A stretch of DNA of 64,000 nucleotides. Source: a virus. Shown here one piece after another: positions 25,409 to 64,000 of this stretch. The stretch lies in IMG/VR virus record IMGVR_UViG_3300014775_001776, positions 32,001-96,000 of that record, one strand, 5' to 3'. Within the stretch, counting starts at the first letter, position 1. Every line of letters starts with the position of its first letter. Made by a program: the position numbers and the translations under genes. A model generated the notes under the pieces. It was given only the letters and a program-made list of their open reading frames with translations, did not search any database and had not been told where the DNA came from.

Positions 25409-28400
25409 ATGGCCAATACTGCAAAATTAAGATTTTTAACACTATTACAAGATTCAGGATTTAATAATCCTGGATTACTAGTTAGTGGATCTTCGGGTGT
25501 TGCGACAAGTAATAGTCTTGGAGGTGCTCAGGTTGGTGACAATATAGTATTAAAAGGGTTAACAACAGGTATTCCTGTAGGTTCAACAATTGATGGATTA
25601 GAGTTTAGTAACTTAGTTGGTGCTACCCAAAAATCGATTTTTTTAAGGTTTATAATTGGTTTTTCTAGCGTTCCGGATAATTTAATAAGAGCTGAAGAAG
25701 TAACTGGTTCGACACAACAAGTAACCATTGGTGGGCCCACAGAACTTTTCGGTTATACGGGTCTTACAGTATCACTTTTAGAACAACTAACTTTAAAGTT
25801 TTTAGTAACGTCTAATACGGGTATCGGTGATTTATCAATCACCGGAAGTTCTGTATCGGGAAGTGAACTACCATCAGTTAAAGTTTATTATACTATTCCT
25901 CCTACTCCTACACCAACAATAACTAGTACTGTTACTAGAACCCCAAAAGGAACTCAGACCGCTACTCCAACCATTACCCCAACCAATACCACTTCAAATA
26001 CTCCAACTCCGACTGTTACTCCAGACCCTACTAAAACTCCTGCGTATTATAATTTAATACCTTGTTGTAGATCAGATGTAAATGAATATTATAGAATTAG
26101 TCAATCAAGTTGGGTTCAAAGCCCAATAGGTACATGGCAAATAGAAAATGATTACAATATACCTTCAGGTTGTTATACATTTTCACAAATAGTACCATCT
26201 GCGGACCCGTTAGGTAGTTTTGATTTTACAGGTGATGCGGTCGGTCCAATCTTTCTAGGTTGCGATGATAATAGTCTTTGTTTATGTCCTACAAATACAC
26301 CTACTCCTACAATAACCAGTACACCAACAATCACTCCAAGTAATCCTGTAACGCCAACCCCAACATATACACCTTTACCACCATTTGCCACTCCAACACC
26401 CTCTGAAGATCCTAAATATAAGGATCAATATCCTAAACGTAATACTCAATATTTTACTTCTAATAATTGTGACGCTACAGTTCAGGATCCAATAATAAAA
26501 ATATTTGGAACTTATGAAGATGGTGAAAATTTAATAAATAAAGTTGTAACTTATGTAGATGATTTAGGTCATTCATTTAGTACGATAATTATTAATAGGG
26601 CTAGTTCACTTACAGACGATCAGATATCTGATGCTAAGTTTGCACAAACAGTTCATGATGATTGTGATGATGCTATAGAATTCATCGAGTATTATGATGG
26701 TGACATATCAAATATGTCATTTAGGGTCAACACATGTGAAGTAAAACCACAAAAGGCATTGCTTAGTATGACATTAAGTAATTCAAATGCTCTTTATCCA
26801 TATACACATTTTAAAGTAGGTAGTACATGTTACTCCTTTAATATGTTCTATAAAGATAGTGGTGGATTAGTTGTGAATGAAAAATACTCTTCTTGTAGTG
26901 AGTGTGGATTTAATGGAACACAAACACCAACACCCACACAAACAAGTACACCTACATCAAGTCCAACATATACACCAACATCAACAGTAACTAATACGAT
27001 TGATACAACACCCACTGTAACGCCAACACAAAAATCGACAACTTATATTGCAACAAATTGTTGTAATGATAGTTTGGACATAAATGTTCAAGGTCCAATC
27101 AATCCTAAAAAAATATTTGTTTTTTATGATGGTACTATCCGTGATGAGAAAAAACTCAAATCAGCTTCAAAACAAATTAGGGAATGGTATTCTAGTTATC
27201 TAGTTAAAAATCAATTTCAGACTGGTAACCTTTATGAGACTGTTATTGGTAATAGTCAGGATAATGCAAATGGTGAAAACTGGTTATGGTGGTCAGTTTA
27301 TCCATACCTAGGTTCTTTATCTGGTGGTGATTTATCTGATGGTACTACAATTAACGAGTTTGATGATGTTGTTGAAAATAGTACTTTTATTAGTGAGTCT
27401 TGTGATTCAAGTAAATCAGGTTATAGATGTGCACCATATAAAACCCAAGTTAATGACTTTGGTTCTATCGCACAAAGAATTAACAGAGGTCTTGACCTAG
27501 ATGACGGAATAAGTTCAACAGTATCTAATGGTGTTGCTTTTAGTCATGATAATCTGAATCAGACTTATAATTCAGGAGTAGGACAATTTAATGGTGGTGA
27601 AAAAGATTATTTGGTAATAACATTTATTGAAGAATCTGATGGTGAGATCGGGATGTACCATGGGCAAAGTACTAAAGATGATTTAATATATGATCCTTTT
27701 ACACTAAAAGGTTATGGATGGGATCTGTCTCAAAGTAAAGAACCGACCAACAGGTATAAACATGATTATGAATCTTATCTTTCTGTTTGGGCTGACATTA
27801 CTAACAATTTATCTGGTGAAATAAATACTGCATTATATAATGTTACTGATGACTTACTGTCAAACTTTGCGTTTTCATTACATAATTTAGCTGCGGTTGA
27901 AGGTAATACTATAAGTGCGTCTGATTTCCAAACAAAGTATGGTGATTCTATAACTGATGTGGGTCCTCAAAACTTAAATTTATCTATACTCACATCTGAA
28001 AATCCATACTCTGATCTTGAAACTACGACTAATTTTAATGATGTACTAAATCCTGAACAAAGAGAAAATGGTCCTGGTCTCACAAACTTTGGTTTCTTTA
28101 CTAATCCTACACTCACAGAATGGGATGATAATACTTACTTAAGTGAAATAGGTACAAATGTCGACTATTTCTTAAAAGACGGATTTATACATGCTGGTCA
28201 ATGTTATCAATTCTTAAGATATGAAAATGTTACTCCCGCAGTTGTCATAAATGAATCAGATATTGTAAAAAATATTTGTTCAACTGACGATTGTGTACCT
28301 TTGTTATGTCCTAGTCCTACTGCAACGCCTACAAATACTATCCAACTTACACCAAATGTAACACCTACAATAACGAATACACCATTTATTACTAGAACAC

Positions 28401-31400
28401 CAACAGTCACATCGACAATACCAGTAACACCTACACAATCTGTAGGAATTGCAAAATTACCTCCACAAACATTAGAATTCAATAAATGTAGTGTCGGAAC
28501 TCCCGGTGATAACACTCTTTATGTTAATCTGACATTATGGCAAAGTAATGGAGAAAAAATATCCTTTTACCATGGAGGATCATGTTATGAAGCAAAAAAC
28601 ACTAATCAAGTAACTACCAATTCACCCACTGCTTATCCAACAGTATGGTTCATCAGATGTCAAGATTGCGTAAACTATTTGGATGAATTACCCACACCAA
28701 CACCTACACAAACACCAACAATCACCCCACAATATAGATGGGTTAACTTTGTAAGTTGTTGTGATAGCGGATTCTTGGTAAGAATAAAATTAAGAGTTGA
28801 TGTTACACCCCTAGCTGGCCAAGGATTTTTCTATAATGACTGTTATTATTATGATCCGGTTTACGAGTTTTATAGTGGTGGTGTAGATTTAATAATAAGT
28901 AGTATTGTTTTAGATGGTCTCGATGATGATTTTTGTCAATCCTCATATTGTTCAACTTATGATCCGTGTCCAACATTAACGCCTACAAGTACACCAACAA
29001 TTTCAATAACCCCCTCACCTACAGAGACGACACCATTAAATTATTATAAAATTAATCCAAAAAGTTGTTGTGATGAATCACAACCATTTACAAACGGTTT
29101 ATTTATAAATGATTTAGTACCTGAAGGAAGTGTATTCATATATAATGGTGAAGAAATTGCATCCCTTAGAGGACAATGTTTTATTGCCGAATATGATCCA
29201 AATGTCAATCCTACTGAATATATTGTAGTTAATGAATTTTTAGGTAAATGCACTGAATGTAGCCAATTACCAGGATTTAAAGCTTGTGAAACACCAACCC
29301 CAACACCAACAATAACATTGACTCAAACTCCAGACCTTTGTGCAGATCAAGACATAGTTATTCTTATTGATCAGTCAGGAAGTATTGGTAGTCAATCTAA
29401 TTTTGATTTCTTAGTAAATGGTGCTATCGAAATAGCAAATTTATTAGAGGATCGTATGGATGCTGGTGAAGTACAAATAGGCGCTTATAAATGGTCAGAT
29501 TGTGCTGAAGATAAAATAGAACTATTAACAGGACTAACATCCAACCATACAAACTTTGTTAATGCATTAAGTGGTACGAGTTGGGATTTAGGTTATACGT
29601 ATGCATCCAAACCCATAGAACTGGCTTATAACCTTTTAAGTGGAAGTACAAATACTGAAGCTAAAAAGAACATCATTTTGATAACTGATGGTGTGATTTC
29701 AGATTTTACAGAGGCACCGGAATGTATTGATTTAGACAATCCGTTATATTCAACATCTCAGATCGCTTCCTTATTAAAGTTAGGATTGTATGGAAATGGT
29801 GAGCAAGTAAATATTTACACCGTTAATGTAATAAATGGAAGTAATAATCAATTAGAAAGTATTTCATCAGGAGATGGATACCACTTCTATGCAGATTCCT
29901 TCTCAGATTTTCAAAATGTTGTATCTGGACTTATTGTTGATCAGGTATGTTCAGAAAGACCTATAGTTGAATCTGTAGAGAAATATCGAGCAAATCCATG
30001 CTGTGGGGGTGATCCTATTCTTGTTGGTGTTGCTAATGCAACGACTAGTGTTATAGGTAAAGGATTTGTATTTAATGGTGCTTGTTATGAAATCGAAGTT
30101 ATAGTTCCAGGGAATGATGCTCCCGATCATGAAGTTTCTTCTAATGATTTATTTGACGATATTTGTTTAGATGTTAACAAATGTTCTTGTTTAAATTACA
30201 GAAAATTTGAACTAGAAAATTGTTGCGATCCAAGTGATGTTATAACAATTGGATATTCAGCGGGTCAACCAGTATTAGGTTCAGGTATCGAATACAATAA
30301 AAAATGTTATCAGTATAGAGGAAATGAAGGTAGTGGAGATACACAATTACTTTTAGATACTTTAGTGTTATCTATGTGTGGACAGGAAGGTTGTTTATGT
30401 GCTACACCGACACCAACTGTTAGTCCAACGACTACAATGACCCAAACACCATCAATTACCAGTTCACCAACTGTGACAATAACTCCCTCTATAACTTCTT
30501 CCGAGACTCCGACACAAACACCCACCAACACAATTACTTCGACTATTACTGCTAGTCAATCGCCAACTATAACACCTTCTAATACATTAACAGTTACACC
30601 TACTAATACTACACCTTCAGAATATGTAATTTACTCATTATCTGGTGTATGTGGAGAAGGGACTAAGTTATTATTTGTCAGTTCGATTGTAGAACCAGGA
30701 GATTTTATCCAATACAGTGGAACGTGTTATGAAGTTTTACAATACTCGGCCGGTACACCGACTGATACAGTAGACGTATTACCGAGTGAAATTTATGAAA
30801 ATGCAGATGCATGTACTCAAGATAGTCCTTGTGTTACATTAACTCCAACACCAACTCTCACACAAACACCGACAGTAACCATTAATAATACGCCTACTAA
30901 TACTCCAACACACTCACACACCGTCACACCATCTAAAGCAACTAAAGTTGCTATTATTCAATCTTGTTGTACTGGGGGTACGACTTATGAAATTTCAGTT
31001 ACTACTGACGTAACAATAGGTGATTCTTTATTATATTCTGGATCGTGTTTTAATGTAATTTCACTTCCAGCAGGTCCAACAACTGGATTGATATATTATG
31101 ATTTACCTTACACTAGTTGTACTGACTGTACATCTTCTGAGACAATCTGTCCGACAGCGACCCCGACTGAAACACCAGCCGTTACTACTACCCCAACAAA
31201 AACACCTAATATTACTCCAGAAGTAACTTCGACACCAACTGGAAGTTTACCAATAGATACTTGGTTGGCTAGGGGTTGTTGTGACTTTAATGATACATTA
31301 AGAGTTAACGTACCGGAAAACCCACAAAAGGTCTATGTCTTTTATGATGGTACATTTATTAATGAGACTCAACTTAAAAATGCTTCAGAAAATATAAGAT

Positions 31401-34400
31401 CTTGGTATCAAGGTAAAGTTTTAAATGATGAGTTAGCTCCGAATGTACTTTATGAGGGTATTATAGGTAAAGATGATAATAATGGTCAAAATTGGTTATG
31501 GTTTGCAACTTATCCATATCTTGGGTCTCTATCGGCAGGTACGGTAAACGGAAGTACAGTATCTGCATTTGGTATAAGTGGTGAATCTGAGACTCACAGT
31601 AAATACGATTCCAGATGGTGTTCATCTAATGATGGTGGAAAATGTGTTCCAAGAACACCATCGTTCAACCTCAGTCAAAGTGGTATATCTACTAGTGATA
31701 TATACAAGAGAGTTACTTATGGTTATCAATTAGAAGGGTCTTACGGTGTAAGTGATCCAAGATCACAAGGTATACCATTTACTCCTGAATCTGGACAAGC
31801 CGATACTTTTGATACTGTCTATGGTAATTTCGCAGGTGAAGAAACAGACTATATAGTCATAATTGTTACCAATCAGAGTAGTGGTGAGGTTGGTTTATAT
31901 CATGGGTCTACATCATATAATGAAGGTAACGCTAAAAAGTCAGACTTAGTAAACCATCCATTTAGATTAGATGGAAAGGGATGGGAAGGAGAAATAACGG
32001 ATCTAGATGATACGGTAGGACAGTTCTTTGAACCAACAGATAGATTCACACATGATTATGAATCATATCTGAAAGTTTGGGAAGAAATCAAAAAATCGGG
32101 TGGTACTCCAAACGTTTTTGTCTATCCTGTCTCAAGTGACGATCAAGAAGTTGTTCCATTTACACAACATCTGATTGGGTCGATTGAAGGTGGACAAATT
32201 TCATCCGATCAATTCCAATCTAAATATGGATCTTCGATTTATAATGTTAGTAATCAAAACGTAGATCTTTCTACTCTTACTACAAAAAATCTTTATTCTG
32301 GGTTCGGAATTAACTCAATATTCTTAGATCTAAATATACAATATCAATCTGGTGGGCCTGGATTGAAAAACTTTAATGTTTATACTGATCCTAATGTCTT
32401 AGATTATTCATTGAGTTCAGTATCGAATTCACTTAACAAACTGATCGATGAAGTTGGGTATCAAAGTGGTTACGGATTTATATATGGTGGAAAATGTTAT
32501 TACTTAGATAGTGTTAGTTCTGGTGTTCCCGATTACTCACCGACAAGTGATGACATCATTGAAAATATATGTTCTTATTCGGGATGTCCAAGTTGTATAC
32601 CATCTGGTTGTTATTCTGGTTTGACAACAGGTTTAGAACACTATTACTACGATTGTTGTAATGGTACATATATTACAGGTACTAGTAATAATGTGACTGT
32701 TTGTATCGATACTTCTAAACCTTTCAGTGGTGTTGATATTTCAGATTATATATCTTGTACACCTGAATGTTTGACTGGATTTTCAATTACTAAATCAGTA
32801 ACAGGAACATGTGAAAATCCAGGTAATGGTATTATATTAATTCAAGTTCAGGATGCATTACAACCATTTATTATAACACCTATTGGACCTTCATACCCAT
32901 CATATAGTGGAAGTCAAACATTCGATGGTATTATAACATATTCAGGTCTTTCTATAGGTGCTTATGGATTTACGGTTACAGATAGTATAAACCAAAGTGA
33001 GACATTTACACTGGTTGTTGATGGTTGTGTATCAGTTCAAATAAGTAATTCGAAAAATACTAGTTGTGGTCTGAATAATGGTACTATAACTGGTACTACA
33101 AATGCTTCACAACTACCTTTAAATGGTAAATTATATAAAGACGGTGGTCTTTATGAAGAATTCGAGATAAGTAATGGAACTTTTGTAAGAACGGAATTAC
33201 CTGCAGGTGTTTATATACTCGAAATTTTAGATTTATTCAATAATGTTTTAGATCAATCAGGGGCAGTAACTGTAAACGATTCGAATAATCTTACTTACGA
33301 TTTGTCTGGTACATCAATACCACAATGTAATAGTACGGGCGCCACAATGACTGTGAGTAATATCGTGGGTGAGTCACCATTTACTTATATTGCTAGTAAT
33401 GGAGATACTGGAACGACTACCGCAACTACTTTCACATTAACAGGGTTTACTGTAGGGTCTCAAAGTATTTCAATAACAGGTAATAATAATTGCTCACTTT
33501 ACCAAAGTATACTTTACAGTGGGGCTGCAACAGTAGGAGTGGCTGAACCAGATATTGAAATTGCCACATGTTTAGAATGTAACGGATCAATAGACTTCAG
33601 AATATCTGGGGGAACACCACCTTTCCAAACAAAACTAGATCAAAATGAATATATCTCATATTCTAGCACTGATTACGATACTGTCTACAATTATAGTGGA
33701 ATATGTAGTGGAAGTCACCAAATTACTATAAAAGATAGTGCTGGTTGTATATCTAACCCTTATACTTTCTTTGTTGAAAACCAGGGAGGTCTTAATGGTG
33801 TTTCTATAAGTGCAACACAACCAACTTGTAATAATTTAGGGTCATTCTTAATACAGATCGATTCTGAATACGTGGCGAATCAAACCTTATTTAGATTTTA
33901 TGGTCAGTGTAGTAATATTCCTGAAGGTGTCCCTGTTGGGGTTACAGTATTTGATAGAGTGGATTTCTTCCCACAATTCCATTTCGAAAATTTATCACCT
34001 GGAACGTGGTCGATAAGTGCTGGTACAATTAATAACGCTACTGAAAAAGAATTTATTTGTGAATATAATACGCAATTTGTATTAGAGGATGATGGAGATC
34101 CGTTCCCGTTAATTATTACACCGACAGGTACTACATGTGGTATACCAAATGGTGTTATAGAGGTAAGATTATATGAAAATATCGAAGCACTAATAAATGG
34201 ATTATTGGCGGTACCATTTGATTACTATATCTATAACGAGAATAATCAAATAGTTTATCAAAAAATAAATTCTTCAGATTTTAAAATAACAGTCAATAAT
34301 TTAAGTTCTGGAATTTATACCGTAAAAGTTGTAGATAATGAATCATGTGAAAAGCAACAAAACGTTACGATAACTGCATCGGAGGGGATGGATTTCACAC

Positions 34401-36664
34401 TTGAAGGTACCGATACCGTCAATGGAAATGATGGATCAATAAAGGCTGTGATCACATCAGGACAACCACCATTTACTTATCAATGGTCTTCAGGTCAAGT
34501 AACTCAAAATATTGAATCCATCACTCAAGGTGGATATACGCTTACAATTGCAGATGCTAATGGATGTTCTTTACAAAGGGAAATAACTTTAGGAGGTACT
34601 GTATTATTCTCTTCATCTCAGACGGTTGAAGTATGTTCTAATGAATTTGCTATTTCTTCATCATCAAAACGTTCTATTAAAGACATGTATGATGAAGGTT
34701 TTGCTGAAGTTACATTTGGTGACACTGGATGTACATTGAATCAAGCTACTTTTACATGTGTAGTTGATTTATCTGGTCCAGTAGAAATAACAGAACAAGA
34801 GATTTTCTTCTACTCTGAATCACTTGACACATATCCATCTGACAATATATGGGTTGCGGCTATAGGTGTGGTTTTAAACAGTATTGAGGAAATACAAGAT
34901 TACAATATAGATTTATTAAGTAATACTATAACAATTAATTCATCATGTTCTGGTGAAGAAGATCCATTGAGGGGTGCATCCTTATCGTTAAGTTTATTTA
35001 TTGAATATGATGTCGAATGTCAATTCGTTAGTGAGGTATCACCAGAACCATCATCAACACCTTCACCAACAATTACATTTACACCAACAATGACAATAAC
35101 TCCAACACGTACATTGAGTCCTATGATTAAGTCAATATTTGCCGAAAACTGTTGTGATCAAACTATTATTCAATTGAGAGTTAATTCTAACGTCATAATT
35201 GGTGATGTTGTGAGTTATGATTCCGGTTGTTATAGAATGATCGGTAATAATGATAATAATGATTCCCCATATGTTGATTCTATAATATACACTTCTTGTA
35301 CTGAATGTTCACCGTCCACTACTCAATGTGTGACACCAACTGTGACAATGACAAATACTGTCACACCTACTATCACTCAATCACCATCTGTAACACCAAC
35401 TAATACTATTACAAATACAGTATCACCATCTGTAACACCAACTAATACTTTGACACCAAGTGAAACTCCAACTAATACTCCAACTAATACAACTACTATT
35501 ACTGCTACACCAACTGGAACTCCAGCAGTAACACCTAATGACACACCATCAGTAACACCAACAAATACTATCACACCAACGAATACTATAACGAATACTG
35601 CGACACTGACTAATACTCCGACTAATACAAACACAAATACTATTACGGCTAGTCAGACAACAACACCAACAAACTCACCAACACAAACAGGTACACCTGG
35701 TTTATCGTCTACACCAACTGAGACACCAACAAATACAGTGACTTCAACACCTACTGATACACCTGTAGAAACTCCAACGGTGACTCCATCAATTACAAAT
35801 ACGATGACAATGACGCCAACAAATACTATCACTAATACACAAACAATGACATATACACCAACATTAACACAAACACCGACTGAAACGTGGCCATTAGATA
35901 CGCCACAACCGACACCAAGTATAACACAGACAAATACACCAACATTGGCATATCAAGCAGTAATATTATTCGACAGATGCTGTACTGGTGAGATCGATTA
36001 CGGTACTGCAATTGCTGTTAACATTCCCGTAGGAAAGGCCCTTGAAACAAATTCAATATTCCTTTCTGGTGAATGTAAATATGTTGGTATTGTTAGTGGT
36101 ATTGATTATCCGACCATTGAATATGTAAACCCAGATAGTTCTGACATCTATGAAGATTGTGAATTGTGTAAGCAACAAAACGGTTGTCCAACCCCAACAC
36201 CGACCAAAACACCACAAGCAACACCACCAGCAACCGCACCAGGAGCTTCACCAACGGGAACTCCATCGGTAACTTCTACTCCTGAAGTGACACCAACTAA
36301 TACTATAACAAATACTCAAACACCTACACAGACTAAGCAAATATTGGATCCGACACCATTCCCAACTCCGAGTAATACGCCTGATGTTGTGAGTGATACT
36401 GTAATAAGAGCTGCAGGTCTAGTAGATGGTGATTTCAGAACATGGGCTGATACTGATGGATTCTGGCCATGGGAAGTTGACGGATATGTTGGAGGATGGA
36501 TCAGAGTTTCCAGAGAAGATAGTGAAGAAATGTTAGAAAGAAATGTTAGCTTTATATATGAACTCGATGGGTACTACATCATGGCAGGTCAACTTGGACA
36601 ACCAGTAGGTATACCTTCACCACAAATATTAGTTAATAATAAAGTTGGTGAGATTGACAACTGA
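25409..36664 (+). CDS. Giant mucin-like putative virion fibre/adhesin, 3751 aa: Thr/Pro stalks, about 14 Cys-rich modules, two copies of a ~360-380 aa inserted domain, a vWA domain and SprB repeats
   Basis: TPTPT linkers; CC...CY...CxxC...C modules; vWA MIDAS DQSGS (29369-29383) plus ILITDG; SprB-type GNDGSIKAVITSGQPPFTYQWSSG...GGYTLTIADANGC; no signal peptide. Confidence 0.8.
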   Translation: MANTAKLRFLTLLQDSGFNNPGLLVSGSSGVATSNSLGGAQVGDNIVLKGLTTGIPVGSTIDGLEFSNLVGATQKSIFLRFIIGFSSVPDNLIRAEEVTGSTQQVTIGGPTELFGYTGLTVSLLEQLTLKFLVTSNTGIGDLSITGSSVSGSELPSVKVYYTIPPTPTPTITSTVTRTPKGTQTATPTITPTNTTSNTPTPTVTPDPTKTPAYYNLIPCCRSDVNEYYRISQSSWVQSPIGTWQIENDYNIPSGCYTFSQIVPSADPLGSFDFTGDAVGPIFLGCDDNSLCLCPTNTPTPTITSTPTITPSNPVTPTPTYTPLPPFATPTPSEDPKYKDQYPKRNTQYFTSNNCDATVQDPIIKIFGTYEDGENLINKVVTYVDDLGHSFSTIIINRASSLTDDQISDAKFAQTVHDDCDDAIEFIEYYDGDISNMSFRVNTCEVKPQKALLSMTLSNSNALYPYTHFKVGSTCYSFNMFYKDSGGLVVNEKYSSCSECGFNGTQTPTPTQTSTPTSSPTYTPTSTVTNTIDTTPTVTPTQKSTTYIATNCCNDSLDINVQGPINPKKIFVFYDGTIRDEKKLKSASKQIREWYSSYLVKNQFQTGNLYETVIGNSQDNANGENWLWWSVYPYLGSLSGGDLSDGTTINEFDDVVENSTFISESCDSSKSGYRCAPYKTQVNDFGSIAQRINRGLDLDDGISSTVSNGVAFSHDNLNQTYNSGVGQFNGGEKDYLVITFIEESDGEIGMYHGQSTKDDLIYDPFTLKGYGWDLSQSKEPTNRYKHDYESYLSVWADITNNLSGEINTALYNVTDDLLSNFAFSLHNLAAVEGNTISASDFQTKYGDSITDVGPQNLNLSILTSENPYSDLETTTNFNDVLNPEQRENGPGLTNFGFFTNPTLTEWDDNTYLSEIGTNVDYFLKDGFIHAGQCYQFLRYENVTPAVVINESDIVKNICSTDDCVPLLCPSPTATPTNTIQLTPNVTPTITNTPFITRTPTVTSTIPVTPTQSVGIAKLPPQTLEFNKCSVGTPGDNTLYVNLTLWQSNGEKISFYHGGSCYEAKNTNQVTTNSPTAYPTVWFIRCQDCVNYLDELPTPTPTQTPTITPQYRWVNFVSCCDSGFLVRIKLRVDVTPLAGQGFFYNDCYYYDPVYEFYSGGVDLIISSIVLDGLDDDFCQSSYCSTYDPCPTLTPTSTPTISITPSPTETTPLNYYKINPKSCCDESQPFTNGLFINDLVPEGSVFIYNGEEIASLRGQCFIAEYDPNVNPTEYIVVNEFLGKCTECSQLPGFKACETPTPTPTITLTQTPDLCADQDIVILIDQSGSIGSQSNFDFLVNGAIEIANLLEDRMDAGEVQIGAYKWSDCAEDKIELLTGLTSNHTNFVNALSGTSWDLGYTYASKPIELAYNLLSGSTNTEAKKNIILITDGVISDFTEAPECIDLDNPLYSTSQIASLLKLGLYGNGEQVNIYTVNVINGSNNQLESISSGDGYHFYADSFSDFQNVVSGLIVDQVCSERPIVESVEKYRANPCCGGDPILVGVANATTSVIGKGFVFNGACYEIEVIVPGNDAPDHEVSSNDLFDDICLDVNKCSCLNYRKFELENCCDPSDVITIGYSAGQPVLGSGIEYNKKCYQYRGNEGSGDTQLLLDTLVLSMCGQEGCLCATPTPTVSPTTTMTQTPSITSSPTVTITPSITSSETPTQTPTNTITSTITASQSPTITPSNTLTVTPTNTTPSEYVIYSLSGVCGEGTKLLFVSSIVEPGDFIQYSGTCYEVLQYSAGTPTDTVDVLPSEIYENADACTQDSPCVTLTPTPTLTQTPTVTINNTPTNTPTHSHTVTPSKATKVAIIQSCCTGGTTYEISVTTDVTIGDSLLYSGSCFNVISLPAGPTTGLIYYDLPYTSCTDCTSSETICPTATPTETPAVTTTPTKTPNITPEVTSTPTGSLPIDTWLARGCCDFNDTLRVNVPENPQKVYVFYDGTFINETQLKNASENIRSWYQGKVLNDELAPNVLYEGIIGKDDNNGQNWLWFATYPYLGSLSAGTVNGSTVSAFGISGESETHSKYDSRWCSSNDGGKCVPRTPSFNLSQSGISTSDIYKRVTYGYQLEGSYGVSDPRSQGIPFTPESGQADTFDTVYGNFAGEETDYIVIIVTNQSSGEVGLYHGSTSYNEGNAKKSDLVNHPFRLDGKGWEGEITDLDDTVGQFFEPTDRFTHDYESYLKVWEEIKKSGGTPNVFVYPVSSDDQEVVPFTQHLIGSIEGGQISSDQFQSKYGSSIYNVSNQNVDLSTLTTKNLYSGFGINSIFLDLNIQYQSGGPGLKNFNVYTDPNVLDYSLSSVSNSLNKLIDEVGYQSGYGFIYGGKCYYLDSVSSGVPDYSPTSDDIIENICSYSGCPSCIPSGCYSGLTTGLEHYYYDCCNGTYITGTSNNVTVCIDTSKPFSGVDISDYISCTPECLTGFSITKSVTGTCENPGNGIILIQVQDALQPFIITPIGPSYPSYSGSQTFDGIITYSGLSIGAYGFTVTDSINQSETFTLVVDGCVSVQISNSKNTSCGLNNGTITGTTNASQLPLNGKLYKDGGLYEEFEISNGTFVRTELPAGVYILEILDLFNNVLDQSGAVTVNDSNNLTYDLSGTSIPQCNSTGATMTVSNIVGESPFTYIASNGDTGTTTATTFTLTGFTVGSQSISITGNNNCSLYQSILYSGAATVGVAEPDIEIATCLECNGSIDFRISGGTPPFQTKLDQNEYISYSSTDYDTVYNYSGICSGSHQITIKDSAGCISNPYTFFVENQGGLNGVSISATQPTCNNLGSFLIQIDSEYVANQTLFRFYGQCSNIPEGVPVGVTVFDRVDFFPQFHFENLSPGTWSISAGTINNATEKEFICEYNTQFVLEDDGDPFPLIITPTGTTCGIPNGVIEVRLYENIEALINGLLAVPFDYYIYNENNQIVYQKINSSDFKITVNNLSSGIYTVKVVDNESCEKQQNVTITASEGMDFTLEGTDTVNGNDGSIKAVITSGQPPFTYQWSSGQVTQNIESITQGGYTLTIADANGCSLQREITLGGTVLFSSSQTVEVCSNEFAISSSSKRSIKDMYDEGFAEVTFGDTGCTLNQATFTCVVDLSGPVEITEQEIFFYSESLDTYPSDNIWVAAIGVVLNSIEEIQDYNIDLLSNTITINSSCSGEEDPLRGASLSLSLFIEYDVECQFVSEVSPEPSSTPSPTITFTPTMTITPTRTLSPMIKSIFAENCCDQTIIQLRVNSNVIIGDVVSYDSGCYRMIGNNDNNDSPYVDSIIYTSCTECSPSTTQCVTPTVTMTNTVTPTITQSPSVTPTNTITNTVSPSVTPTNTLTPSETPTNTPTNTTTITATPTGTPAVTPNDTPSVTPTNTITPTNTITNTATLTNTPTNTNTNTITASQTTTPTNSPTQTGTPGLSSTPTETPTNTVTSTPTDTPVETPTVTPSITNTMTMTPTNTITNTQTMTYTPTLTQTPTETWPLDTPQPTPSITQTNTPTLAYQAVILFDRCCTGEIDYGTAIAVNIPVGKALETNSIFLSGECKYVGIVSGIDYPTIEYVNPDSSDIYEDCELCKQQNGCPTPTPTKTPQATPPATAPGASPTGTPSVTSTPEVTPTNTITNTQTPTQTKQILDPTPFPTPSNTPDVVSDTVIRAAGLVDGDFRTWADTDGFWPWEVDGYVGGWIRVSREDSEEMLERNVSFIYELDGYYIMAGQLGQPVGIPSPQILVNNKVGEIDN
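32790..34590 (+). repeat. Array of SprB-like Ig repeats within the 3751-aa protein
   Basis: Repeated TC...NG.I.....GG..P(F/Y)......L..G.Y...V.D...C units (e.g. TCLECNGSIDFRISGGTPPF, TTCGIPNGVIEV...LSSGIYTVKVVDNESC). Confidence 0.7.
35380..35449 (+). repeat. 28-nt direct repeat with a 42-nt period in the Thr/Pro stalk
   Basis: ATCACCATCTGTAACACCAACTAATACT at 35380-35407 and 35422-35449. Confidence 0.8.
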
Positions 36665-36692: not shown

Positions 36693-39600
36693 ATGGAAAA
36701 GACTAATTATATCTATTTATCTGGTATTTCTTCAAATCAGGTTTATGCCATTTGGGCTTTAGCATTCAAATATCCAGGTACTGATATTGTTACTACAGAT
36801 TCTGAATTTATAGGAAAAGAAGGACAGTATATCAGAGCAGAAATTTACTTAGATGATTTACCATATGGTACTTATTCTAATAATGGGTATAAAACACCTA
36901 TTTATGCTTCTGGTGCAACGAATAATTTAGCACCTGCTGGTGAATCTATATTTTTAATAATTACTGAGGAAGAGTACAATAATAACAAATGGAGTCAGTG
37001 GGCTAATTTTGGAAAATCTGCATTTGCTAGAGTCTATGATTATATTAATCCATATGGTAATGAGATAATACATGAACTAGATTACATTAGTGAAACTTTT
37101 GCATTTGATAATATAAAATCCTTCGATGAACCAAGAATAATTAGACATTTATATGAAATTGATAAGGTAGTTTTCAATTTTTTTGATTCTTACAACGAAT
37201 GTCTATCTACCTTCACTAATATAGGTGAAAGATGTAAAGAATTTATCGAAAATTCTTTTACGGGATACACATATGAATATGTGATCAATATAAATGAAGA
37301 TGAATTTGTTTTTTCTGATGGAGAAAATTATTATAATGGTGCTGGATCTTCTAGTAGTGAAAATTATTGGTATGCATTAGAATCTAAATATCGACCCACT
37401 GGGGGGATTTATAATACAACAGGATGTCACTTTGCAATTATAATTACTAAGTTACCTAATGATGTATTTTATGGTATTGCGAAGCAATTTCATTATCTAA
37501 CCGCTTTTAATTATACTGATCAAATTGCCAATTCTTACCCGAAGTTAGATACTGACAATATGGAAATTTTTGCTCAAAAATTAATTGTTCATGAATTAGG
37601 TCACAATCTAGGCTTAGACCATACTTTTTCTGACATTCAGGCAGAATGGAAAACTTTATATCCAGATTTACATTTGAATGCGTTAGACAATCTAAGGAGA
37701 TTTGAACTTAACCCACCATTTAGTGAACCATATTATGATGATGGTAATAGTTATATTGCTTATTCAGGTGAGGCACCTGGTAAATCTGCTGCAATGTCGT
37801 ATGATTTAGATCCTAGTCATGGGTATGGATGTCCGTTGAATCCAAACGTACTGTTAGATGTTAATTACGATCAATTTTCAGGAGTGACAAGGTATCGTGA
37901 TTACCCAATCAATGAGAATAAAATTAATACACTTTTCTTAAATCAAGGAAGGACTGATGATTTTACAAGTTCTAAAAATGGTTTGACTTATTATTCTGGA
38001 AATAATCTTAATTTATTTTCATACATGGTAGATGGTGAATTTGTTGAAGGAGAAATCACTGGTATGACATTGAATTTTACTGCAACTACCGCAGTACAAA
38101 GATTAAAACAGCCATTTTGGGAAAATCCGGCAACATCGGAGTTTAATGATGATTTGAGTTGGACAGATTTAATGTCTTATACTATGTATTTCACCAAAAA
38201 TAATACATTACAAAAATATCCTATATATGCTAAGACAAGTTCGACAGATTCTCCAGAGAATTCTACTGGAATTACTACAAATATTTCGGTACCACTTACA
38301 GGGACCGTTTGGAATATTATCTCATTAGGTTTTCTAGATTATACTGATCTTTCTACAAATGGAATTTTTATTGAATATTTCAGTGGGGCGTACAGTTATA
38401 GCGGAACACCTTCAGGTACAACTATTATACCAAATGGTAGTAATGTGGTATTAGAATTGGATGATTTGAATTTACAAATTCATACAACTGGTGGAACATT
38501 CACAAGAAAGGCTAGAGGTTACGATAGCAGATTTACTGGTCATACATTGTCAACAAAAATATATGAAGAAGGATCCAAAATACAAAGAATAGGTATTGGA
38601 CCTCCAGTAAATGACAGATTTGTTAGTTATGAAAGAGATGCTGCTATTTATATGTTGAAAAAATACGACAGATTTTTCGCATTAAGTCAACCAGCATCTA
38701 ATGAAACAATTAAAGTTGAACAAATATTTTACTATCTATTTGATGATATTGGTAAACCGACCCTAGCTAAAATAGATATAACCAAGGATAATATTCAGTC
38801 CACGTATGATATATCAGATTTGAGAATACAAAATACAGAAATTATAAATATTTTATTTGCAGTCGTTGAAAGTCAAACTTATTTGTTCCTTTTACAAAAA
38901 GAAAGTAATGAAAAATTCTATCTTACCAAACATCTTGTTTTAGATTATTTGAATTTGAATTTAGTAAATGAATCGGTAAAGACTACGACAATAAATCTAG
39001 ATTCATATAATGGTACATTTACATTACTTAGAATGTCTTTGTATGACGATTCAAATATCATAATTTCTACAGATTATTATTTTAATTCGCCTAGTTTCTT
39101 AGTAAATGTAGTTGGGTCGACCAATACAACGGTAGACTTTGATTTGGATTCTCAATTACCTTATGGTAGTGGAGGTATAACAAGTTCGATAAGGGCCAAT
39201 TTAAGTGGAACTACATATTATCATCAATATTGGAGATCTGGTACTAATAAAAGAATATATCAAAATCACGAAACATTTTATAATGGTAATGTTTTTGCAT
39301 ATGATATAGATCATCCTTTGGAATCATCAGAAGAGGTATTAAGAATTTTTTATTATTCGTGGGATGATAATGAGAATAAAATAAATGTTATAACAGATCA
39401 AGGGAGGGTAATAAGTCTTGACGGAAATAATTATACGGGTGGTACTTATACCATAACTGGCACTTCTATCTTAAGACAATTTGATGATCATCAAATAATT
39501 TCAATTTCTAACCTTCAAAACTTCTCTAATACGTATGATATTACATTCGATTTAGAACAATATTACTTGAGAGGTCTCAATAGTGATATCGTTTATGTGA

Positions 39601-41225
39601 TTGAAAAAGCGAGGTGTGAAAACGAACTTACAATAGGTACAGTGGTTAGTGGAAATACTTATTTGTCTTATACCCAAGCAGGTGATAGTTTAAGATATCC
39701 GTATGTCAATAACCAACCGGTCACACAAAATGAAAAATTTTATGAAGTAATTTCTCTGGATGATGCAGTGACATCAAAATACTTTGATTATTACAGTAGA
39801 ATGATTACAAAACAACCAAGTTATTCTGGTACTTCTTTATTTGGATTTGATAATCCTAATATACCAGAGGGTGAAATTAATTACTCTTTTGATACTGTAG
39901 AGTATGGTGATGGTGAGGAAATAATACCATTTACAGGAACTATCAGAGTTTTAGTTTTAATTTATGTATGGGATGATGATGAAGTTATGAATCAAGATGG
40001 AAGGCCTGAATCTACAGGCGATTTTGTTTGTGCAATTTCTGAAGAAAGGTTAAATGAAGAGATAGATCTAGGATTCAATTTTGAATTTAATTATGAGATA
40101 ATTAATTCAAGTCATGAGTGGTATCTATCGTTACAAAGTCCTTCAGATCCTACAGTTGGTATTGGTATAGATCATTTCCAAGGATGGTGGTATGAAAATT
40201 ATGGAAGTGTTTATGATTATAATCAATATCACTATTGTACGTTACTACAAAAGCATGGACCAAATACGGGTAATATAGGTGGTACTTTATTGAGAATGAG
40301 TACTTTTACTTCTCCAACACCAGGATCTATCATGGGTATATATTTACATGAATTCGGACATGTGTTAGGATTAAGACATTCTTTTGATAATGTTTGGGGT
40401 GATGTATTTCCCGAATTAGGTACACCATATTTAGATCCAGGTAGAAGAGAGATTGCTAGTATAATAGGATATGAATGTTGTAAAGGAGGAAATCAAATTC
40501 TACCTTACTATAATGAGTTTATAGACGACGATGTAAATAGTAAAAAAATCAGTATCATGTCTTATGGTGGAATGACCAATGAAGGGTATAATGCACCAAA
40601 AGACGCACAAAATGTACTAGACGTCAAAATATTATTTGATAAGCCTACTAACGAGACTTATACAAATATAACACCAAAGTCTAATGTTACATATTATGAT
40701 TTTATATCTATTGGTGATGAAATAACTTCGAAAGTTATTACTGGATTGACAATAACTTATACGGCTCCTGAAAGTAATGATGAATTAGAGAATCAAATTA
40801 GACTTGTCAATACTGCAAACACATTGAACCAAATCGTATTAGATCGTGAAACTACTACAACATCAGGTAATTATGAAAAAACATTTAATCAAGAAGAAAT
40901 ACAAGGAATATACTTAAGTGGTGACCCACTTTCCTTGGGATTAGAAATTACAAGATTCGATGTGTCAACAAATAATAATGTAGGAGACTTTGATTTCCAG
41001 TGGAAAATTTATAGAGGAGAACTCAAGATTACTTTTAAAGACGATCAAGGTACGGAATATGATAGATTACCTAAAAATTGTTTTACGATTGCGCCGGATT
41101 CTTCTATAATACATAATTATGTAGATGCTTCGATATTCCAATTAGAAATTTTTACATCGTATGAAAGAGAGATTATCAAAAATAACATAAACAATAGAAT
41201 GCAAACTTATTTAAATCTATCATGA
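36693..41225 (+). CDS. Tandem metzincin zinc-metalloprotease protein, 1510 aa, with two catalytic domains (M12B reprolysin-like / M43 pappalysin-like)
   Basis: HELGHNLGLDH (37590-37622) with Met-turn AAMSY; HEFGHVLGLRH (40347-40379) with Met-turn SIMSY. Confidence 0.85.
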   Translation: MEKTNYIYLSGISSNQVYAIWALAFKYPGTDIVTTDSEFIGKEGQYIRAEIYLDDLPYGTYSNNGYKTPIYASGATNNLAPAGESIFLIITEEEYNNNKWSQWANFGKSAFARVYDYINPYGNEIIHELDYISETFAFDNIKSFDEPRIIRHLYEIDKVVFNFFDSYNECLSTFTNIGERCKEFIENSFTGYTYEYVININEDEFVFSDGENYYNGAGSSSSENYWYALESKYRPTGGIYNTTGCHFAIIITKLPNDVFYGIAKQFHYLTAFNYTDQIANSYPKLDTDNMEIFAQKLIVHELGHNLGLDHTFSDIQAEWKTLYPDLHLNALDNLRRFELNPPFSEPYYDDGNSYIAYSGEAPGKSAAMSYDLDPSHGYGCPLNPNVLLDVNYDQFSGVTRYRDYPINENKINTLFLNQGRTDDFTSSKNGLTYYSGNNLNLFSYMVDGEFVEGEITGMTLNFTATTAVQRLKQPFWENPATSEFNDDLSWTDLMSYTMYFTKNNTLQKYPIYAKTSSTDSPENSTGITTNISVPLTGTVWNIISLGFLDYTDLSTNGIFIEYFSGAYSYSGTPSGTTIIPNGSNVVLELDDLNLQIHTTGGTFTRKARGYDSRFTGHTLSTKIYEEGSKIQRIGIGPPVNDRFVSYERDAAIYMLKKYDRFFALSQPASNETIKVEQIFYYLFDDIGKPTLAKIDITKDNIQSTYDISDLRIQNTEIINILFAVVESQTYLFLLQKESNEKFYLTKHLVLDYLNLNLVNESVKTTTINLDSYNGTFTLLRMSLYDDSNIIISTDYYFNSPSFLVNVVGSTNTTVDFDLDSQLPYGSGGITSSIRANLSGTTYYHQYWRSGTNKRIYQNHETFYNGNVFAYDIDHPLESSEEVLRIFYYSWDDNENKINVITDQGRVISLDGNNYTGGTYTITGTSILRQFDDHQIISISNLQNFSNTYDITFDLEQYYLRGLNSDIVYVIEKARCENELTIGTVVSGNTYLSYTQAGDSLRYPYVNNQPVTQNEKFYEVISLDDAVTSKYFDYYSRMITKQPSYSGTSLFGFDNPNIPEGEINYSFDTVEYGDGEEIIPFTGTIRVLVLIYVWDDDEVMNQDGRPESTGDFVCAISEERLNEEIDLGFNFEFNYEIINSSHEWYLSLQSPSDPTVGIGIDHFQGWWYENYGSVYDYNQYHYCTLLQKHGPNTGNIGGTLLRMSTFTSPTPGSIMGIYLHEFGHVLGLRHSFDNVWGDVFPELGTPYLDPGRREIASIIGYECCKGGNQILPYYNEFIDDDVNSKKISIMSYGGMTNEGYNAPKDAQNVLDVKILFDKPTNETYTNITPKSNVTYYDFISIGDEITSKVITGLTITYTAPESNDELENQIRLVNTANTLNQIVLDRETTTTSGNYEKTFNQEEIQGIYLSGDPLSLGLEITRFDVSTNNNVGDFDFQWKIYRGELKITFKDDQGTEYDRLPKNCFTIAPDSSIIHNYVDASIFQLEIFTSYEREIIKNNINNRMQTYLNLS

Positions 41226-47825: not shown

Positions 47826-47830
47826 ATTTG

Positions 47831-56571: not shown

Positions 56572-57840
56572 ATGCCTAGAAAAAAAGAAACAATATTTGT
56601 TCAGATTGCATCATACAGAGATCCAGAACTAGTAAATACTCTGGAAAGTATGATAAAAAACGCTAAAAGACCAAAGAATTTGGTAATTGGTATTTGTAGA
56701 CAATATCATCCAGAAGATGGATTTGATAACTTAGATAAGTGGAAAGATGATAAAAGATTTAGAGTAATCGATGTACCTTATACTGAAAGTAAGGGAGTTT
56801 GTTGGGCAAGACACCAAGTCCAACAAGTTTATAGTGGTGAGACCTATACACTACAGATTGATTCACATATGAGATTTGAAAAAGATTGGGATGTTGAGAT
56901 GATAGGTATGGTAAAGCAATTACAAAAAATGGGAATACCAAAACCATTATTGACATCATATGTTTCTTCTTTTGATCCAGAAAATGATCCACAAGCAAGG
57001 GTTACAGAACCATGGAGAATGGCTTTTGATAGATTTATACCTGAAGGTGCGGTATTCTTCTTACCAGAAACAATACCCAATTGGAAAGAATTAGATACCC
57101 CAGTTCCATCTCGTTTCTATTCTGCCCACTATGCGTTTACGTTAGGAGAATTTTCAACAGAGGTACAACACAACCCTGAATATTATTTCCACGGTGAAGA
57201 AATTTCAATTGCTGCTAGAGCATATACTTGGGGTTATGATTTATTCCACCCACACAAAGTTTTAATTTGGCACGAATATACTAGAAAAGGTAGGACAAAA
57301 CAATGGGATGATGATAAAAAGTGGGTAGATCGTAATAAGCATTCGCATCTTACAAATAGAAAATTATTCGGAATGGATGGTGAAATCCAAGAGGGTCACG
57401 ATGGTAAGTATGGTTTTGGACCTGTGAGAACTTTAGAAGAATACGAAGAATATAGTGGATTACATTTTCAGAAAAGAGGAATACAACAATATACATTAGA
57501 TAAAAACTACCCACCAAACCCAGGAATCGATACATTCGAAAATAAAGAGGCTTGGTTAGATAGTTTTGCAACAATCTACAAGCACTGTATTGATGTTGGT
57601 TATGATTCTGTACCTGAAAAAGATTATGAATTCTGGGTGGTTGCTTTCCACGATAAAGAAGATAATACAATTTTCAGAAAAGATGCGGATAAGGGTGAAA
57701 TTGATAGAATGATGAGAGATCCTGATGGTTATTGTAAAATTTGGAGAGAATTTAATATTACTGAGAAACCAGCATATTGGGTTGTTTGGCCATACTCAAC
57801 TGAAAAAGGATGGTGTGAAAGATTAACAGGTAATCTTTAA
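56572..57840 (+). CDS. GT60-family (Pfam 'GlcNAc') UDP-GlcNAc:polypeptide/hydroxyproline GlcNAc-transferase homologue with an extra C-terminal domain
   Basis: TIFVQIASYRDPEL, GICRQ, SKGVCWAR, YTLQIDSHMRFEKDWD (DxH metal motif), FHGEEISIAARAYTWGYDLF: the motif set of Dictyostelium Gnt1/Gnt2-type GT60 enzymes. Confidence 0.8.
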   Translation: MPRKKETIFVQIASYRDPELVNTLESMIKNAKRPKNLVIGICRQYHPEDGFDNLDKWKDDKRFRVIDVPYTESKGVCWARHQVQQVYSGETYTLQIDSHMRFEKDWDVEMIGMVKQLQKMGIPKPLLTSYVSSFDPENDPQARVTEPWRMAFDRFIPEGAVFFLPETIPNWKELDTPVPSRFYSAHYAFTLGEFSTEVQHNPEYYFHGEEISIAARAYTWGYDLFHPHKVLIWHEYTRKGRTKQWDDDKKWVDRNKHSHLTNRKLFGMDGEIQEGHDGKYGFGPVRTLEEYEEYSGLHFQKRGIQQYTLDKNYPPNPGIDTFENKEAWLDSFATIYKHCIDVGYDSVPEKDYEFWVVAFHDKEDNTIFRKDADKGEIDRMMRDPDGYCKIWREFNITEKPAYWVVWPYSTEKGWCERLTGNL

Positions 57841-62600: not shown

Positions 62601-64000
62601 CAGCATCTGTTACACCATCACAGACGGCTGCGGTTACTCCTACAAACACACCTACATCTACGGTAACACCATCATTGACTAGAACTCCAACTAATACTCC
62701 AACTGCGTCAGTAACTGCAACACCTACGAATACTCCTACGAATACGGTTACACCGTCAATCACTCGTACTCCGACAAACACTCCAACTGCGTCTGTAACG
62801 GCATCGGTAACGCCATCAGTAACTCCAACTGAAACACCAACTAATACACCTACTGCGTCAGTGACTCCGTCACAAACGGCTGCGGTTACTCCGACAAATA
62901 CTCCTACATCAACAGTTACTCCATCAATCACTCGTACTCCGACAAACACACCAACGGCATCAGTAACTGCGACACCTACTAATACGCCGACATCAACGGT
63001 AACGCCTTCTATTACTAGAACCCCGACATATACACCGACTGCTTCAGTAACGGCTTCGGTTACTCCATCTATTACTCCTACTGAAACCCCAACACAGACT
63101 CCAACGAATACTGTTACTCCGTCTATCACTCCAACTGAAACTCCGACTAACACTCCTACGGCTTCAGTTACACCATCGGTAACTCCAACGGAGACGCCAA
63201 CGAACACTCCAACTGCATCTGTTACTCCATCTCAAACTGCGGCAGTTACACCAACAAACACTTCTACTCCGACAAATACTCCTACATCAACTGTAACACC
63301 AACACAAACGGTAACTCCTTCAAATACTGTTACTCCAACATTCACGCCGACAAATACAATAACCCCTACAAACACGGTAACTCCGTCTAATACTGTTACT
63401 CCAACATTTACTCCAACAGCATCAGTCACCCCATCTGTAACACCAACCGAAACGCCAACTAATACGCCAACCGCATCGGTAACACCATCGGTAACGCCAA
63501 CTGAGACCCCAACGAATACTCCAACAGCATCTGTAACACCATCTCAGACTGCAGCGGTTACACCTACTAATACACCAACATCGACTGTAACACCTACTGC
63601 GACGGTTACACCAACCAATACGGTAACACCTTCAAATACGGTAACTCCGACTTACACTCCAACTAATACGATTACCCCTACAAATACGGTAACTCCATCG
63701 AATACCGTGACACCTACCTTTACACCTACCGCTTCTGTTACTCCGACAGAAACACCAACTCAAACGCCAACAAATACTCCAACTGCGAGTGTCACTCCTT
63801 CTATTACTCCAACAGAGACACCAACAAATACTCCTACCGCATCTGTTACACCATCTCAGACTGCTCAGGTTACTCCTACGAATACACCGACATCTACGAT
63901 TACTCCAACGGTTACTTCATCGGTAACACCAACTGAAACGCCAACACAGACTCCAACTAACACTCCAACTGCGTCAGTGACCCCTTCACAGACAGCCGCA
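59615..64000 (+). CDS. Giant mucin-like protein with an N-terminal Hint (intein-like) domain; 3' truncated, at least 1462 aa; absent from the supplied ORF track
   Basis: Translated by hand through about 61000 (remainder checked for frame at the window end): [31 protein letters not shown]...[21 protein letters not shown](155)-VGYAC..., about 3 Cys-rich modules, then Thr/Pro repeat ending in frame at nt 64000 (...TPSQTAA). Confidence 0.85.
60935..64000 (+). repeat. About 1020-codon Thr/Ser-Pro mucin-like tract (units such as [16 protein letters not shown])
   Basis: Composed almost entirely of T, P, S, V, A, N, I, R with some E/Q; synonymous codons are scrambled, so DNA copies are imperfect. 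Confidence 0.9.

Follow-up and report, generated by a model that had tools for sequence, protein, structure and literature searches.

Why should a virus keep two glycosyltransferase genes in the midst of genes for giant, threonine- and proline-rich proteins? The question is raised by a stretch of 64,000 nucleotides from an uncultured large freshwater phage (hereafter the window; bases 32001-96000 of the single 104,710-bp viral contig IMGVR_UViG_3300014775_001776), in which a gene for a GT60 glycosyltransferase and a gene for a two-domain HtrL/GT2 transferase sit, as an earlier note on this DNA had pointed out, between two mucin-like giants, 47828 upstream and 59615 downstream (genes are named by their first base). 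We argue that the pair (56572-59568) constitutes a phage-borne cytoplasmic cassette for protein O-glycosylation that is aimed at Thr/Pro stalks, a reading to which we assign a probability of roughly 0.65. The identity of the enzymes and their genomic coupling to genes for stalks rich in Pro and Thr (PT) are solid, and it is on these that the following sections concentrate before the remaining parts of the reading are weighed.

Results

The earlier note had placed the product of 56572-57840 in GT60 and had related it to the GT27 polypeptide N-acetylgalactosamine (GalNAc) transferases, and both assignments are borne out. The match to PF11397 has an E-value of 7e-69 (233 bits, cut-off 21), a phage glycosyltransferase family (phrog_24687) is matched over the full length of the protein with an E-value of 8e-166, the IASYRD, QIDSH and HGEE motifs are all present, and the metal motif D97-S98-H99 is invariant in an alignment of 21 GT60 sequences. 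A sequence search against PDB chains gave no match; the AlphaFold model, with a pLDDT (predicted local distance difference test) value of 91, retrieves by Foldseek GalNAc-T4, T2 and T1 (E 1e-9) and the Toxoplasma T3 as its top PDB structures, ahead of other GT-A enzymes. The protein has no other Pfam domain, a ricin-type lectin domain is absent, and its C-terminal 120 amino acids (aa) are modelled as small and beta-rich. GT60 is known as the family of polypeptide alpha-N-acetylglucosamine (GlcNAc) transferases that start mucin-type chains in Dictyostelium and Trypanosoma cruzi; it is without the ricin domain of GT27, and those of its characterised activities that have been reviewed are on polypeptides, namely the Thr of protist mucins and the hydroxyproline of Skp1 (PMC8724618). 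Sequence and model together lead us to predict that the phage enzyme is an initiating polypeptide O-glycosyltransferase. No match to a prolyl hydroxylase (PF13640) was found in the contig or in three relatives, one of them 88% complete and all four records being incomplete, and Thr/Ser is therefore favoured over hydroxyproline as the acceptor. A complex prediction for the enzyme with a 40-residue stalk fragment and Mn, run without controls, scored 0.00, a value that we let weigh on neither side. No link between phages and GT60 or PF11397 came up in our search of the literature.

Both domains that had been proposed for the enzyme encoded at 57862 were confirmed with Pfam, the HtrL/WlaTC-type domain matching PF09612 with 50.7 bits (cut-off 24.1) and the GT2 domain matching PF00535 with 28 bits (cut-off 23.3). 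Its score against TIGR02192 is 64 bits, under the cut-off of 264.9, so that the HtrL domain is to be taken as a member of the HtrL/WlaTC family and not as an orthologue of E. coli YibB. The residues E393-D394-D395 are invariant in an alignment of 17 HtrL/GT2 sequences, and the model consists of two GT-A domains whose nearest structures are tandem GT-A proteins (Mimivirus R699, LH3, LARGE1 and K4CP). From alignment and model, the enzyme is predicted to extend the glycan by two sugars. With regard to a possible assignment of the HtrL domain to CAZy family GT74, a homologue search led to environmental HtrL/WlaTC-type proteins only, and the names HtrL and GT74 were linked nowhere in our literature search. 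Among the homologues (P0007-P0012, P0022-P0024) the HtrL domain is often fused to FkbM, TylF-like or Methyltransf_24 domains, which replace or join GT2. The fusion to O-methyltransferase domains in many relatives suggests that their glycans may contain methylated sugars.

For the giant proteins, a Thr/Ser/Pro (TSP) tract was defined by 50-aa windows with at least 60% Thr, Ser and Pro and at least 12% Pro. The long Thr/Ser-Pro stalks that had been ascribed to four giants are found by this rule in 25409, 47828 and 59615 (Table 1); the description overstates 41905, which has a single tract of 65 aa. A stalk of more than 1000 aa had also been reported, and it is present in 59615, its length having been underestimated because the gene continues past the window and ends at contig position 99339. 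The main stalk of this protein occupies aa 425-2387, that is, 1,963 continuous residues with 1,001 Thr/Ser, and is flanked on either end by small Cys-rich modules. The Thr/Ser keep a strict every-second-residue register (autocorrelation of -0.84 at lag 1 and +0.84 at lag 2), and 893 of the 1,001 have Pro at -1, +1 or +3; Pro at such positions is the context preferred by mucin-type initiating enzymes. Identity among the DNA repeats behind the stalk is only 72-78%, and the length of the stalk is therefore unlikely to be an artefact of assembly; the same divergence indicates that codons have drifted while the amino-acid composition was maintained. At 0.25-0.3 nm per residue, the fully extended stalk would measure about 0.5-0.6 µm.

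The 47828 protein resembles beads on a string, with many small Cys-containing modules and PT linkers of up to 259 aa between them. In agreement with the earlier statement that the four giants lack signal peptides, a Kyte-Doolittle scan of the giants and of both glycosyltransferases showed no signal-like stretch at the N-terminus and no transmembrane-like stretch. The VWA domain of 25409 is supported by domain search, and a protein search with the N-terminus of 25409 gave no match. Metzincin protease heads had been expected as well; the motifs of 36693 are supported, and those of 41905 weakly so. The N-termini of 41905 (41905-41994) and 47828 (47828-47920) are similar (MA.VIIRLT..SNA.GPF...), and this common segment could be an attachment or recognition module.

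The earlier note had named the genomic association of GT60 with PT-rich genes as a test of its proposal, and the association is strong in relatives. We compared the best 80 of at least 337 IMG/VR relatives of the GT60 (72-85% identity) with 80 control loci from the same phage group that were anchored on the DnaB helicase (1.0 Mb). In 75 of the 80 close viral loci, GT60 is followed by HtrL/GT2 at a distance of 1-9.5 kb downstream. The cassette directly adjoins a TSP-rich open reading frame (ORF) in 63 of these loci, and 74 have such an ORF within 10 kb, as opposed to no TSP tract in any of the 80 control loci. Counted per 100 kb, TSP-rich ORFs fall from 88 at gaps of up to 500 bp to 0.8-5.0 at 5-10 kb. 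The PT neighbours belong to at least eight unrelated N-terminal families, which argues that the shared feature travelling with GT60 is the PT tract itself; of the genes of the contig, the two glycosyltransferase genes and three far-end genes recur in the close loci, and almost no others. The ends of many metagenomic contigs (L013, L015, L019, L020, L024, L052, L054, L061 and others, and the relative G001) lie inside a PT gene or no more than a few hundred bases from GT60; PT-repeat DNA seems to break assemblies, biasing counts of presence and absence. A 138-kb relative, G002 (C1:5786-8318; also L265, L266), has two GT60 paralogues in tandem, which share 57% and 41% identity with the enzyme of the window.

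The genes that separate the two conserved enzymes differ among relatives and include GT25, a PLOD-like glycosyltransferase, two GT10-type fucosyltransferase-like genes, a GT4-like gene, FkbM methyltransferases and carbamoyltransferases. This variability suggests that glycan diversity may be under selection. Among the window genes and ten representative cassette genes of relatives, we saw no undecaprenyl phosphate (Und-P) priming transferase, flippase, polymerase or ligase, and judged by its gene content the cassette looks like a diversifying glycan-assembly locus without lipid-carrier machinery.

A second viral set consisted of 18 distant loci found with the enzyme of the Xanthomonas jumbo phage XacN1, whose ORF334 is 48% identical to the window GT60 and whose HtrL/GT2 homologue is 38% identical to its counterpart. 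The pair is kept within ±10 kb in 14 of these 18 loci, and the HtrL/GT2 partner is also found in XacN1 itself and in Xoo-sp13, CM1 and RAS14. PT proteins adjoin the cassette in several of the loci; one of them measures 742 aa, of which 363 form a stalk, and another is a repeat protein of 1,675 aa that has PT linkers. Two viral loci with a GT60 only 35-37% identical to that of XacN1 encode, directly upstream, a protein of 402 aa in which (PT)n connects Cys-containing modules. The XacN1 cassette, which also holds a carbamoyltransferase and a GT9 gene, adjoins baseplate wedge genes and a gene for a 3,313-aa protein with short PT linkers. In a tree of 108 GT60 sequences the viral ones fall in three separate positions: the window enzyme beside Saprospiraceae and Lewinellaceae inside a Bacteroidota-dominated group, the XacN1-like enzymes with Burkholderiaceae, and a third viral group with Verrucomicrobiota. 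PT neighbours are seen in each of the three viral lineages.

The pairing of GT60 with PT genes recurs in bacteria of five phyla. In a set of 80 bacterial loci, including loci from metagenome-assembled genomes (MAGs), a TSP-rich ORF is the immediate neighbour in 15, with a density of 23 per 100 kb at the cassette as opposed to 0.4-1.8 at 5-10 kb. The nearest cellular relatives of the window GT60 are Saprospiraceae copies with 68-73% identity, whose locus sits among Omp85, OmpA and UvrB genes and is therefore chromosomal. The full combination of PT-stalk protein, GT60 and HtrL/GT2 is found in Saprospiraceae, Lewinellaceae, Verrucomicrobia and Jiulongibacter sediminis, and in Vicinamibacterales with the HtrL-type domain only. 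In the J. sediminis isolate the locus further comprises a UDP-glucose dehydrogenase, an epimerase, a second GT60 and a carbamoyltransferase gene, the last situated between GT60 and a fusion of FkbM with HtrL/GT2. Nine PT neighbours in eight loci of Bacteroidota, Verrucomicrobiota and Acidobacteriota begin with a twin-arginine-like motif and a hydrophobic stretch before the PT stalk, and three such neighbours end in a type IX sorting domain that reaches its curated threshold (a fourth, from Lewinellaceae, matches more weakly). The twin-arginine (Tat) reading of these leaders is drawn from the motif and hydrophobic stretch, with TIGR01409 giving one weak match and no confirmation. The arrangement of these bacterial genes is as would be expected if the stalks were glycosylated in the cytoplasm and exported folded.

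In Gemmatimonadaceae (L202:9245-9970, L205:9164-9883, L198:3839-4471) a protein with a PqqD-like peptide-chaperone domain is encoded just upstream of GT60, the domain being followed by an arginine-rich/hydrophobic stretch and then by a PT-rich tail. Burkholderiaceae and relatives (L215, L229, L237, L239, L246, L247, L257, L259-L261) have a short GT60 of about 310 aa, without the C-terminal domain, some 1-6 kb from a gene for a protein of about 760-1,040 aa that has PT tracts and a conserved N-terminus, VgrG-like by appearance.

With regard to transcription, the motif TATTTAT lies 5-20 nt upstream of 25409 (25397-25403), 47828 (47819-47825) and 59615 (59589-59595) and is missing before 41905, just as the earlier note had described for three of the four giants. 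In the form TATTTAT(A) it precedes nine genes by 5-31 nt, including 25409, 36693, 41584, 47828 and 59615. Over the whole window TATTTAT occurs at the level of chance (45 copies found, 46.6 expected); it is intergenic copies that are enriched, the 833 intergenic bases holding 9 of the 29 plus-strand copies where local composition predicts about 1.2. On this distribution, TATTTAT(A) looks like a late-promoter-like or initiation-region motif of the phage group. It is also a near mirror image of the T4 late promoter TATAAATA. The motif is missing in front of the glycosyltransferase genes, and nothing like a terminator is found between 47828 and these genes, which fits with their being co-transcribed with the upstream fibre gene, as they probably are.

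Table 1. Positions of the features discussed; coordinates are those of the window, except for the two bacterial modules, which are given by locus.
Position	Strand or source	Feature	Matches and tracts
56572..57840	+	Soluble GT60 glycosyltransferase, 422 aa: GT-A catalytic domain and ~120-aa beta-rich C-terminal domain	PF11397
57862..59568	+	Two-domain glycosyltransferase, 568 aa: HtrL/WlaTC-type aa 11-253, GT2 aa 304-403	PF09612, PF00535
59615..64000, continuing to window-equivalent 67339	+	Giant, 2,574 aa; most mucin-like candidate acceptor	3 TSP tracts, 2,112 aa
47828..56503	+	2,891-aa protein adjoining GT60 on the upstream side; candidate acceptor	9 TSP tracts, 807 aa in total
25409..36664	+	Giant, 3,751 aa; VWA domain aa 1315-1504; candidate acceptor	7 TSP tracts, 664 aa in total
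41905..47787	+	1,960-aa protein, weak reprolysin-like match	One TSP tract, 65 aa (aa 423-487)
36693..41225	+	1,510-aa protein, metzincin HExxH-type motifs; neighbour, not a predicted acceptor	Peptidase_M10 and Reprolysin matches; 0 TSP tracts
9984..12312	+	Baseplate wedge genes, gp25-like (9984-10469) and gp6-like (10474-12312)	phrog_261 (E 1e-18), phrog_219 (E 1e-20)
5489, 9972, 12357, 25397, 36680, 41572, 47819, 59589	+	TATTTAT(A) copies before start codons	
L204:7954-15157	Jiulongibacter sediminis	Chromosomal module: PT-stalk protein (twin-arginine-like leader) beside GT60 and HtrL/GT2, carbamoyltransferase, FkbM methyltransferase	
L185:6370-13113	Saprospiraceae MAG	Chromosomal module: PT-stalk protein (twin-arginine-like leader, type IX sorting domain) beside GT60 and HtrL/GT2, sulfotransferase-domain gene	

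As for the setting of these genes, CheckV puts the completeness of the contig at about 35%, corresponding to a genome size near 300 kb. The GC content of the window is about 32%, and the plus strand carries every long frame taken as a gene. All ORFs of the earlier list were recovered at their coordinates; the frame of gene 47828 opens at a TTG at that base, the ATG chosen earlier lying at 47831. Ahead of the baseplate wedge genes come genes of replication and nucleotide metabolism (SSB, UvsX-like recombinase, exonuclease, DnaB-type helicase and ribonucleotide reductase), and the PHROG matches of this T4-type module agree with the previous placement of the giants after baseplate genes. The run of large genes from 12378 onward matched no PHROG family, and a nucleotide search of a phage collection with the baseplate-to-fibre region as the query returned no match. 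A Pfam search found no sulfotransferase in the contig, nor did the sulfotransferase-domain protein of the Saprospiraceae locus L185 match when compared directly. Downstream of the last giant, a 462-aa protein (L001:9269-10657) contains SprB repeats (E 3e-17), which are known from the gliding adhesins of Bacteroidota. Since the nearest cellular GT60 relatives are those of Saprospiraceae and the downstream gene carries SprB repeats, the gene content points to a Bacteroidota host. Two further proteins, one of 498 aa with Fe/Mn superoxide dismutase domains (L002:1346-2842, minus strand) and one of 627 aa with a thioredoxin/AhpC-like domain (L002:11790-13673), may have a role in folding the many Cys-rich modules of the giants.

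Discussion

Taken as a cytoplasmic O-glycosylation system, the cassette would operate as follows. During late gene expression, GT60 would transfer a first sugar, most likely alpha-GlcNAc from UDP-GlcNAc, to Thr/Ser in the unfolded PT tracts of the phage's own giants while these are still in the host cytoplasm, and the HtrL and GT2 double transferase would then add two sugars. The glycan of relatives would be diversified by additional transferases, methyltransferases and carbamoyltransferases, the set of which varies. The outcome would be stiff, hydrated and protease-resistant stalks that keep small Cys-rich, VWA or lectin-like modules off the particle. The earlier note's contention that the phage glycosylates its own fibres is thus partly supported, by the family and fold of GT60, by the solubility of the enzymes, by the linkage to HtrL/GT2, by the PT association and by the Schiff-stained virion glycoproteins of XacN1, which has the homologous cassette; the acceptor, the choice of GlcNAc, the timing and the location in the virion are what we infer from these.

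A number of points weigh against this reading. Aquatic phages and bacteria commonly have PT linkers in their proteins, and many of these linkers occur with no GT60 nearby. The status of the giants as virion parts is taken from their position after the baseplate genes, without a PHROG match, and the case for the phage and its close relatives is one of genes and models. The 80 close loci come for the most part from a single clade and do not amount to 80 independent observations, and a PT-rich ORF lies within 10 kb in only 7 of the 18 XacN1-like loci. A 270-kb relative (G001, 88% complete) shares the gene order and has PT-rich proteins with no match to GT60; its contig breaks in the fibre region, where the cassette would lie, and we have therefore rejected it as evidence of absence. 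The phage XacN1 is the relative with virion data, and it encodes another glycosyltransferase too (ORF328). At least two bands in its purified virions are positive with periodic acid-Schiff, and the authors, who proposed that phage glycosyltransferases make these virion glycoproteins, did not assign the bands to proteins (Yoshikawa et al. 2018; PMC5852040).

These unassigned bands leave room for a cassette that acts on other proteins, be it a capsid or tail-tube protein of the phage or a target in the host, and that sits in the fibre region because insertions are tolerated there. The interval between GT60 and HtrL/GT2 is indeed highly variable in relatives, and glycans in mycobacteriophages are placed on capsid and tail-tube C-termini by work to which PMC12619734 refers. 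We consider this explanation unlikely, however, as the adjacency to PT genes is immediate, decays with distance, and is repeated in three viral lineages and in bacterial chromosomes without phage context, and the PT tract is the only feature common to the neighbours.

It is improbable, too, that the enzymes remodel glycans of the host envelope (lipopolysaccharide (LPS), capsule or surface glycoproteins), for example to block superinfection or to aid release. Such a role would suit the HtrL/WlaTC relatives that were named from LPS or lipooligosaccharide loci, the GT25, GT10 and GT9-type genes of relatives, which are typical of LPS loci, and the closeness of the phage enzymes to the Saprospiraceae chromosomal copies (67-73% identity), yet those bacterial copies adjoin PT-stalk proteins and not LPS clusters. 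Furthermore, the annotated cassettes showed none of the Und-P priming, flippase, polymerase or ligase functions, and no characterised GT60 in the review of the family uses a lipid or polysaccharide acceptor (PMC8724618).

One may also ask whether the PT tracts are plain, unglycosylated spacers whose proximity to GT60 is functionally meaningless. Linkers of this kind occur widely with no dedicated glycosyltransferases, and G001 has PT proteins and no GT60 match; but PT genes are locally enriched 10- to 100-fold around the cassette in three data sets, which, set against no PT gene in 1.0 Mb of control loci, makes the explanation very unlikely, and the apparent absence of GT60 from G001 coincides with a contig break. 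That the two enzymes hypermodify phage DNA against restriction, the classical role of phage glycosyltransferases and one hinted at by a faint match of the GT2 domain to a T4-type glucosyl-hydroxymethylcytosine glucosyltransferase PHROG (E 0.007, the best stretch alone being under threshold), is hardly credible, given that GT60 and its fold relatives act on polypeptides, that the genes lie in a late structural block without a promoter motif of their own, that homologous pairs in bacterial chromosomes adjoin secreted PT proteins, and that we noticed no base-hydroxymethylase in the 105 kb of the contig, which cover some 35% of the genome.

Beyond the phage itself, a wider reading of the cassette can be put forward tentatively, and we regard it as possible and on balance doubtful: GT60 and HtrL/GT2 may represent a widespread, hitherto uncharacterised prokaryotic system for the cytoplasmic, mucin-type O-glycosylation of Thr/Pro stalks, a counterpart of eukaryotic GT60/GT27 initiation and of Gnt1-PgtA. 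In bacteria the acceptors would be surface proteins that, already bearing sugars, would leave the cytoplasm by the twin-arginine pathway and, in Bacteroidota, then by type IX secretion; large phages would have captured the system at least three times for glycan-clad fibres up to about half a micrometre long.

Should the stalks of the phage indeed be glycosylated, a glycocalyx of their own making would clothe many of the abundant phages of fresh water, close relatives of the GT60 being present in at least 337 IMG/VR contigs. The coat would have consequences for adsorption, stability, grazing and aggregation, and the particle would be unlike the bare protein shells that are assumed in phage ecology. 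Glycan diversity could then be a new axis of conflict between phage and host or between phage and predator. The GT60 family, known from protists, would extend to working protein glycosylation in bacteria and phages, and glyco-engineers would have at hand a soluble mucin-type initiating enzyme that is active in the bacterial cytoplasm.

Several known systems bear comparison. The serine-rich-repeat adhesins of Gram-positive bacteria are primed with GlcNAc on their Ser/Thr repeats in the cytoplasm (GtfA/GtfB), extended by soluble glycosyltransferases and exported by accessory Sec, in parallel with the bacterial loci that combine a PT-stalk protein, a twin-arginine-like leader, GT60 and HtrL/GT2; they differ in their GT4-type families, their repeats, their export system and the lack of any known phage involvement. 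The protist GT60 enzymes of Dictyostelium and T. cruzi, including the cytosolic Gnt1, share with the phage enzyme PF11397, a GT-A fold nearest to GT27, the DSH motif and the absence of a ricin-type lectin domain. The phage enzyme resembles Gnt1 in that it is soluble and would act in the cytoplasm, and the Golgi forms in that its likely acceptors are Thr-rich repeats; unlike them all, it is of phage or bacterial origin, has an extra beta-rich C-terminal domain of about 120 aa and a giant phage protein as candidate acceptor, and no prolyl hydroxylase was found beside it in the records searched. In the Skp1 pathway the cytosolic GT60 member primes Skp1 and a bifunctional GT2 and GT74 enzyme acts next (PMC8724618). 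The phage likewise pairs a GT60 with one double-transferase protein, as Gnt1 is paired with PgtA, with GT2 as one of the two domains and all proteins soluble, whereas its second domain is of the HtrL/WlaTC type, the domain order is reversed, and neither Skp1 nor a hydroxylase takes part; the resemblance is one of architecture only.

Among phages, a close parallel in genes is XacN1, where the GT60 was not recognised as such by the authors, the HtrL/GT2 was left as hypothetical and the acceptor was unnamed; its PT tracts are short. In a 2025 account of large freshwater Bacteroidota phages, glycosyltransferases figure in the core gene set with generic roles only (PMC12619734). The same source cites the glycosylation of mycobacteriophage virions on capsid and tail-tube C-termini (Freeman et al. 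2023), in which, as it is summarised there, phage-encoded glycosyltransferases O-glycosylate the phage's own structural proteins in the host cytoplasm, as we propose here from genes alone. The accounts consulted of that system report neither a GT60 assignment nor a PT-stalk acceptor, and the acceptors of the present phage would, in contrast, be mucin-like stalks of hundreds to about 2,000 residues. Set beside these, the cassette is probably a GT60-initiated variant of phage virion glycosylation, with PT stalks as its putative acceptors.

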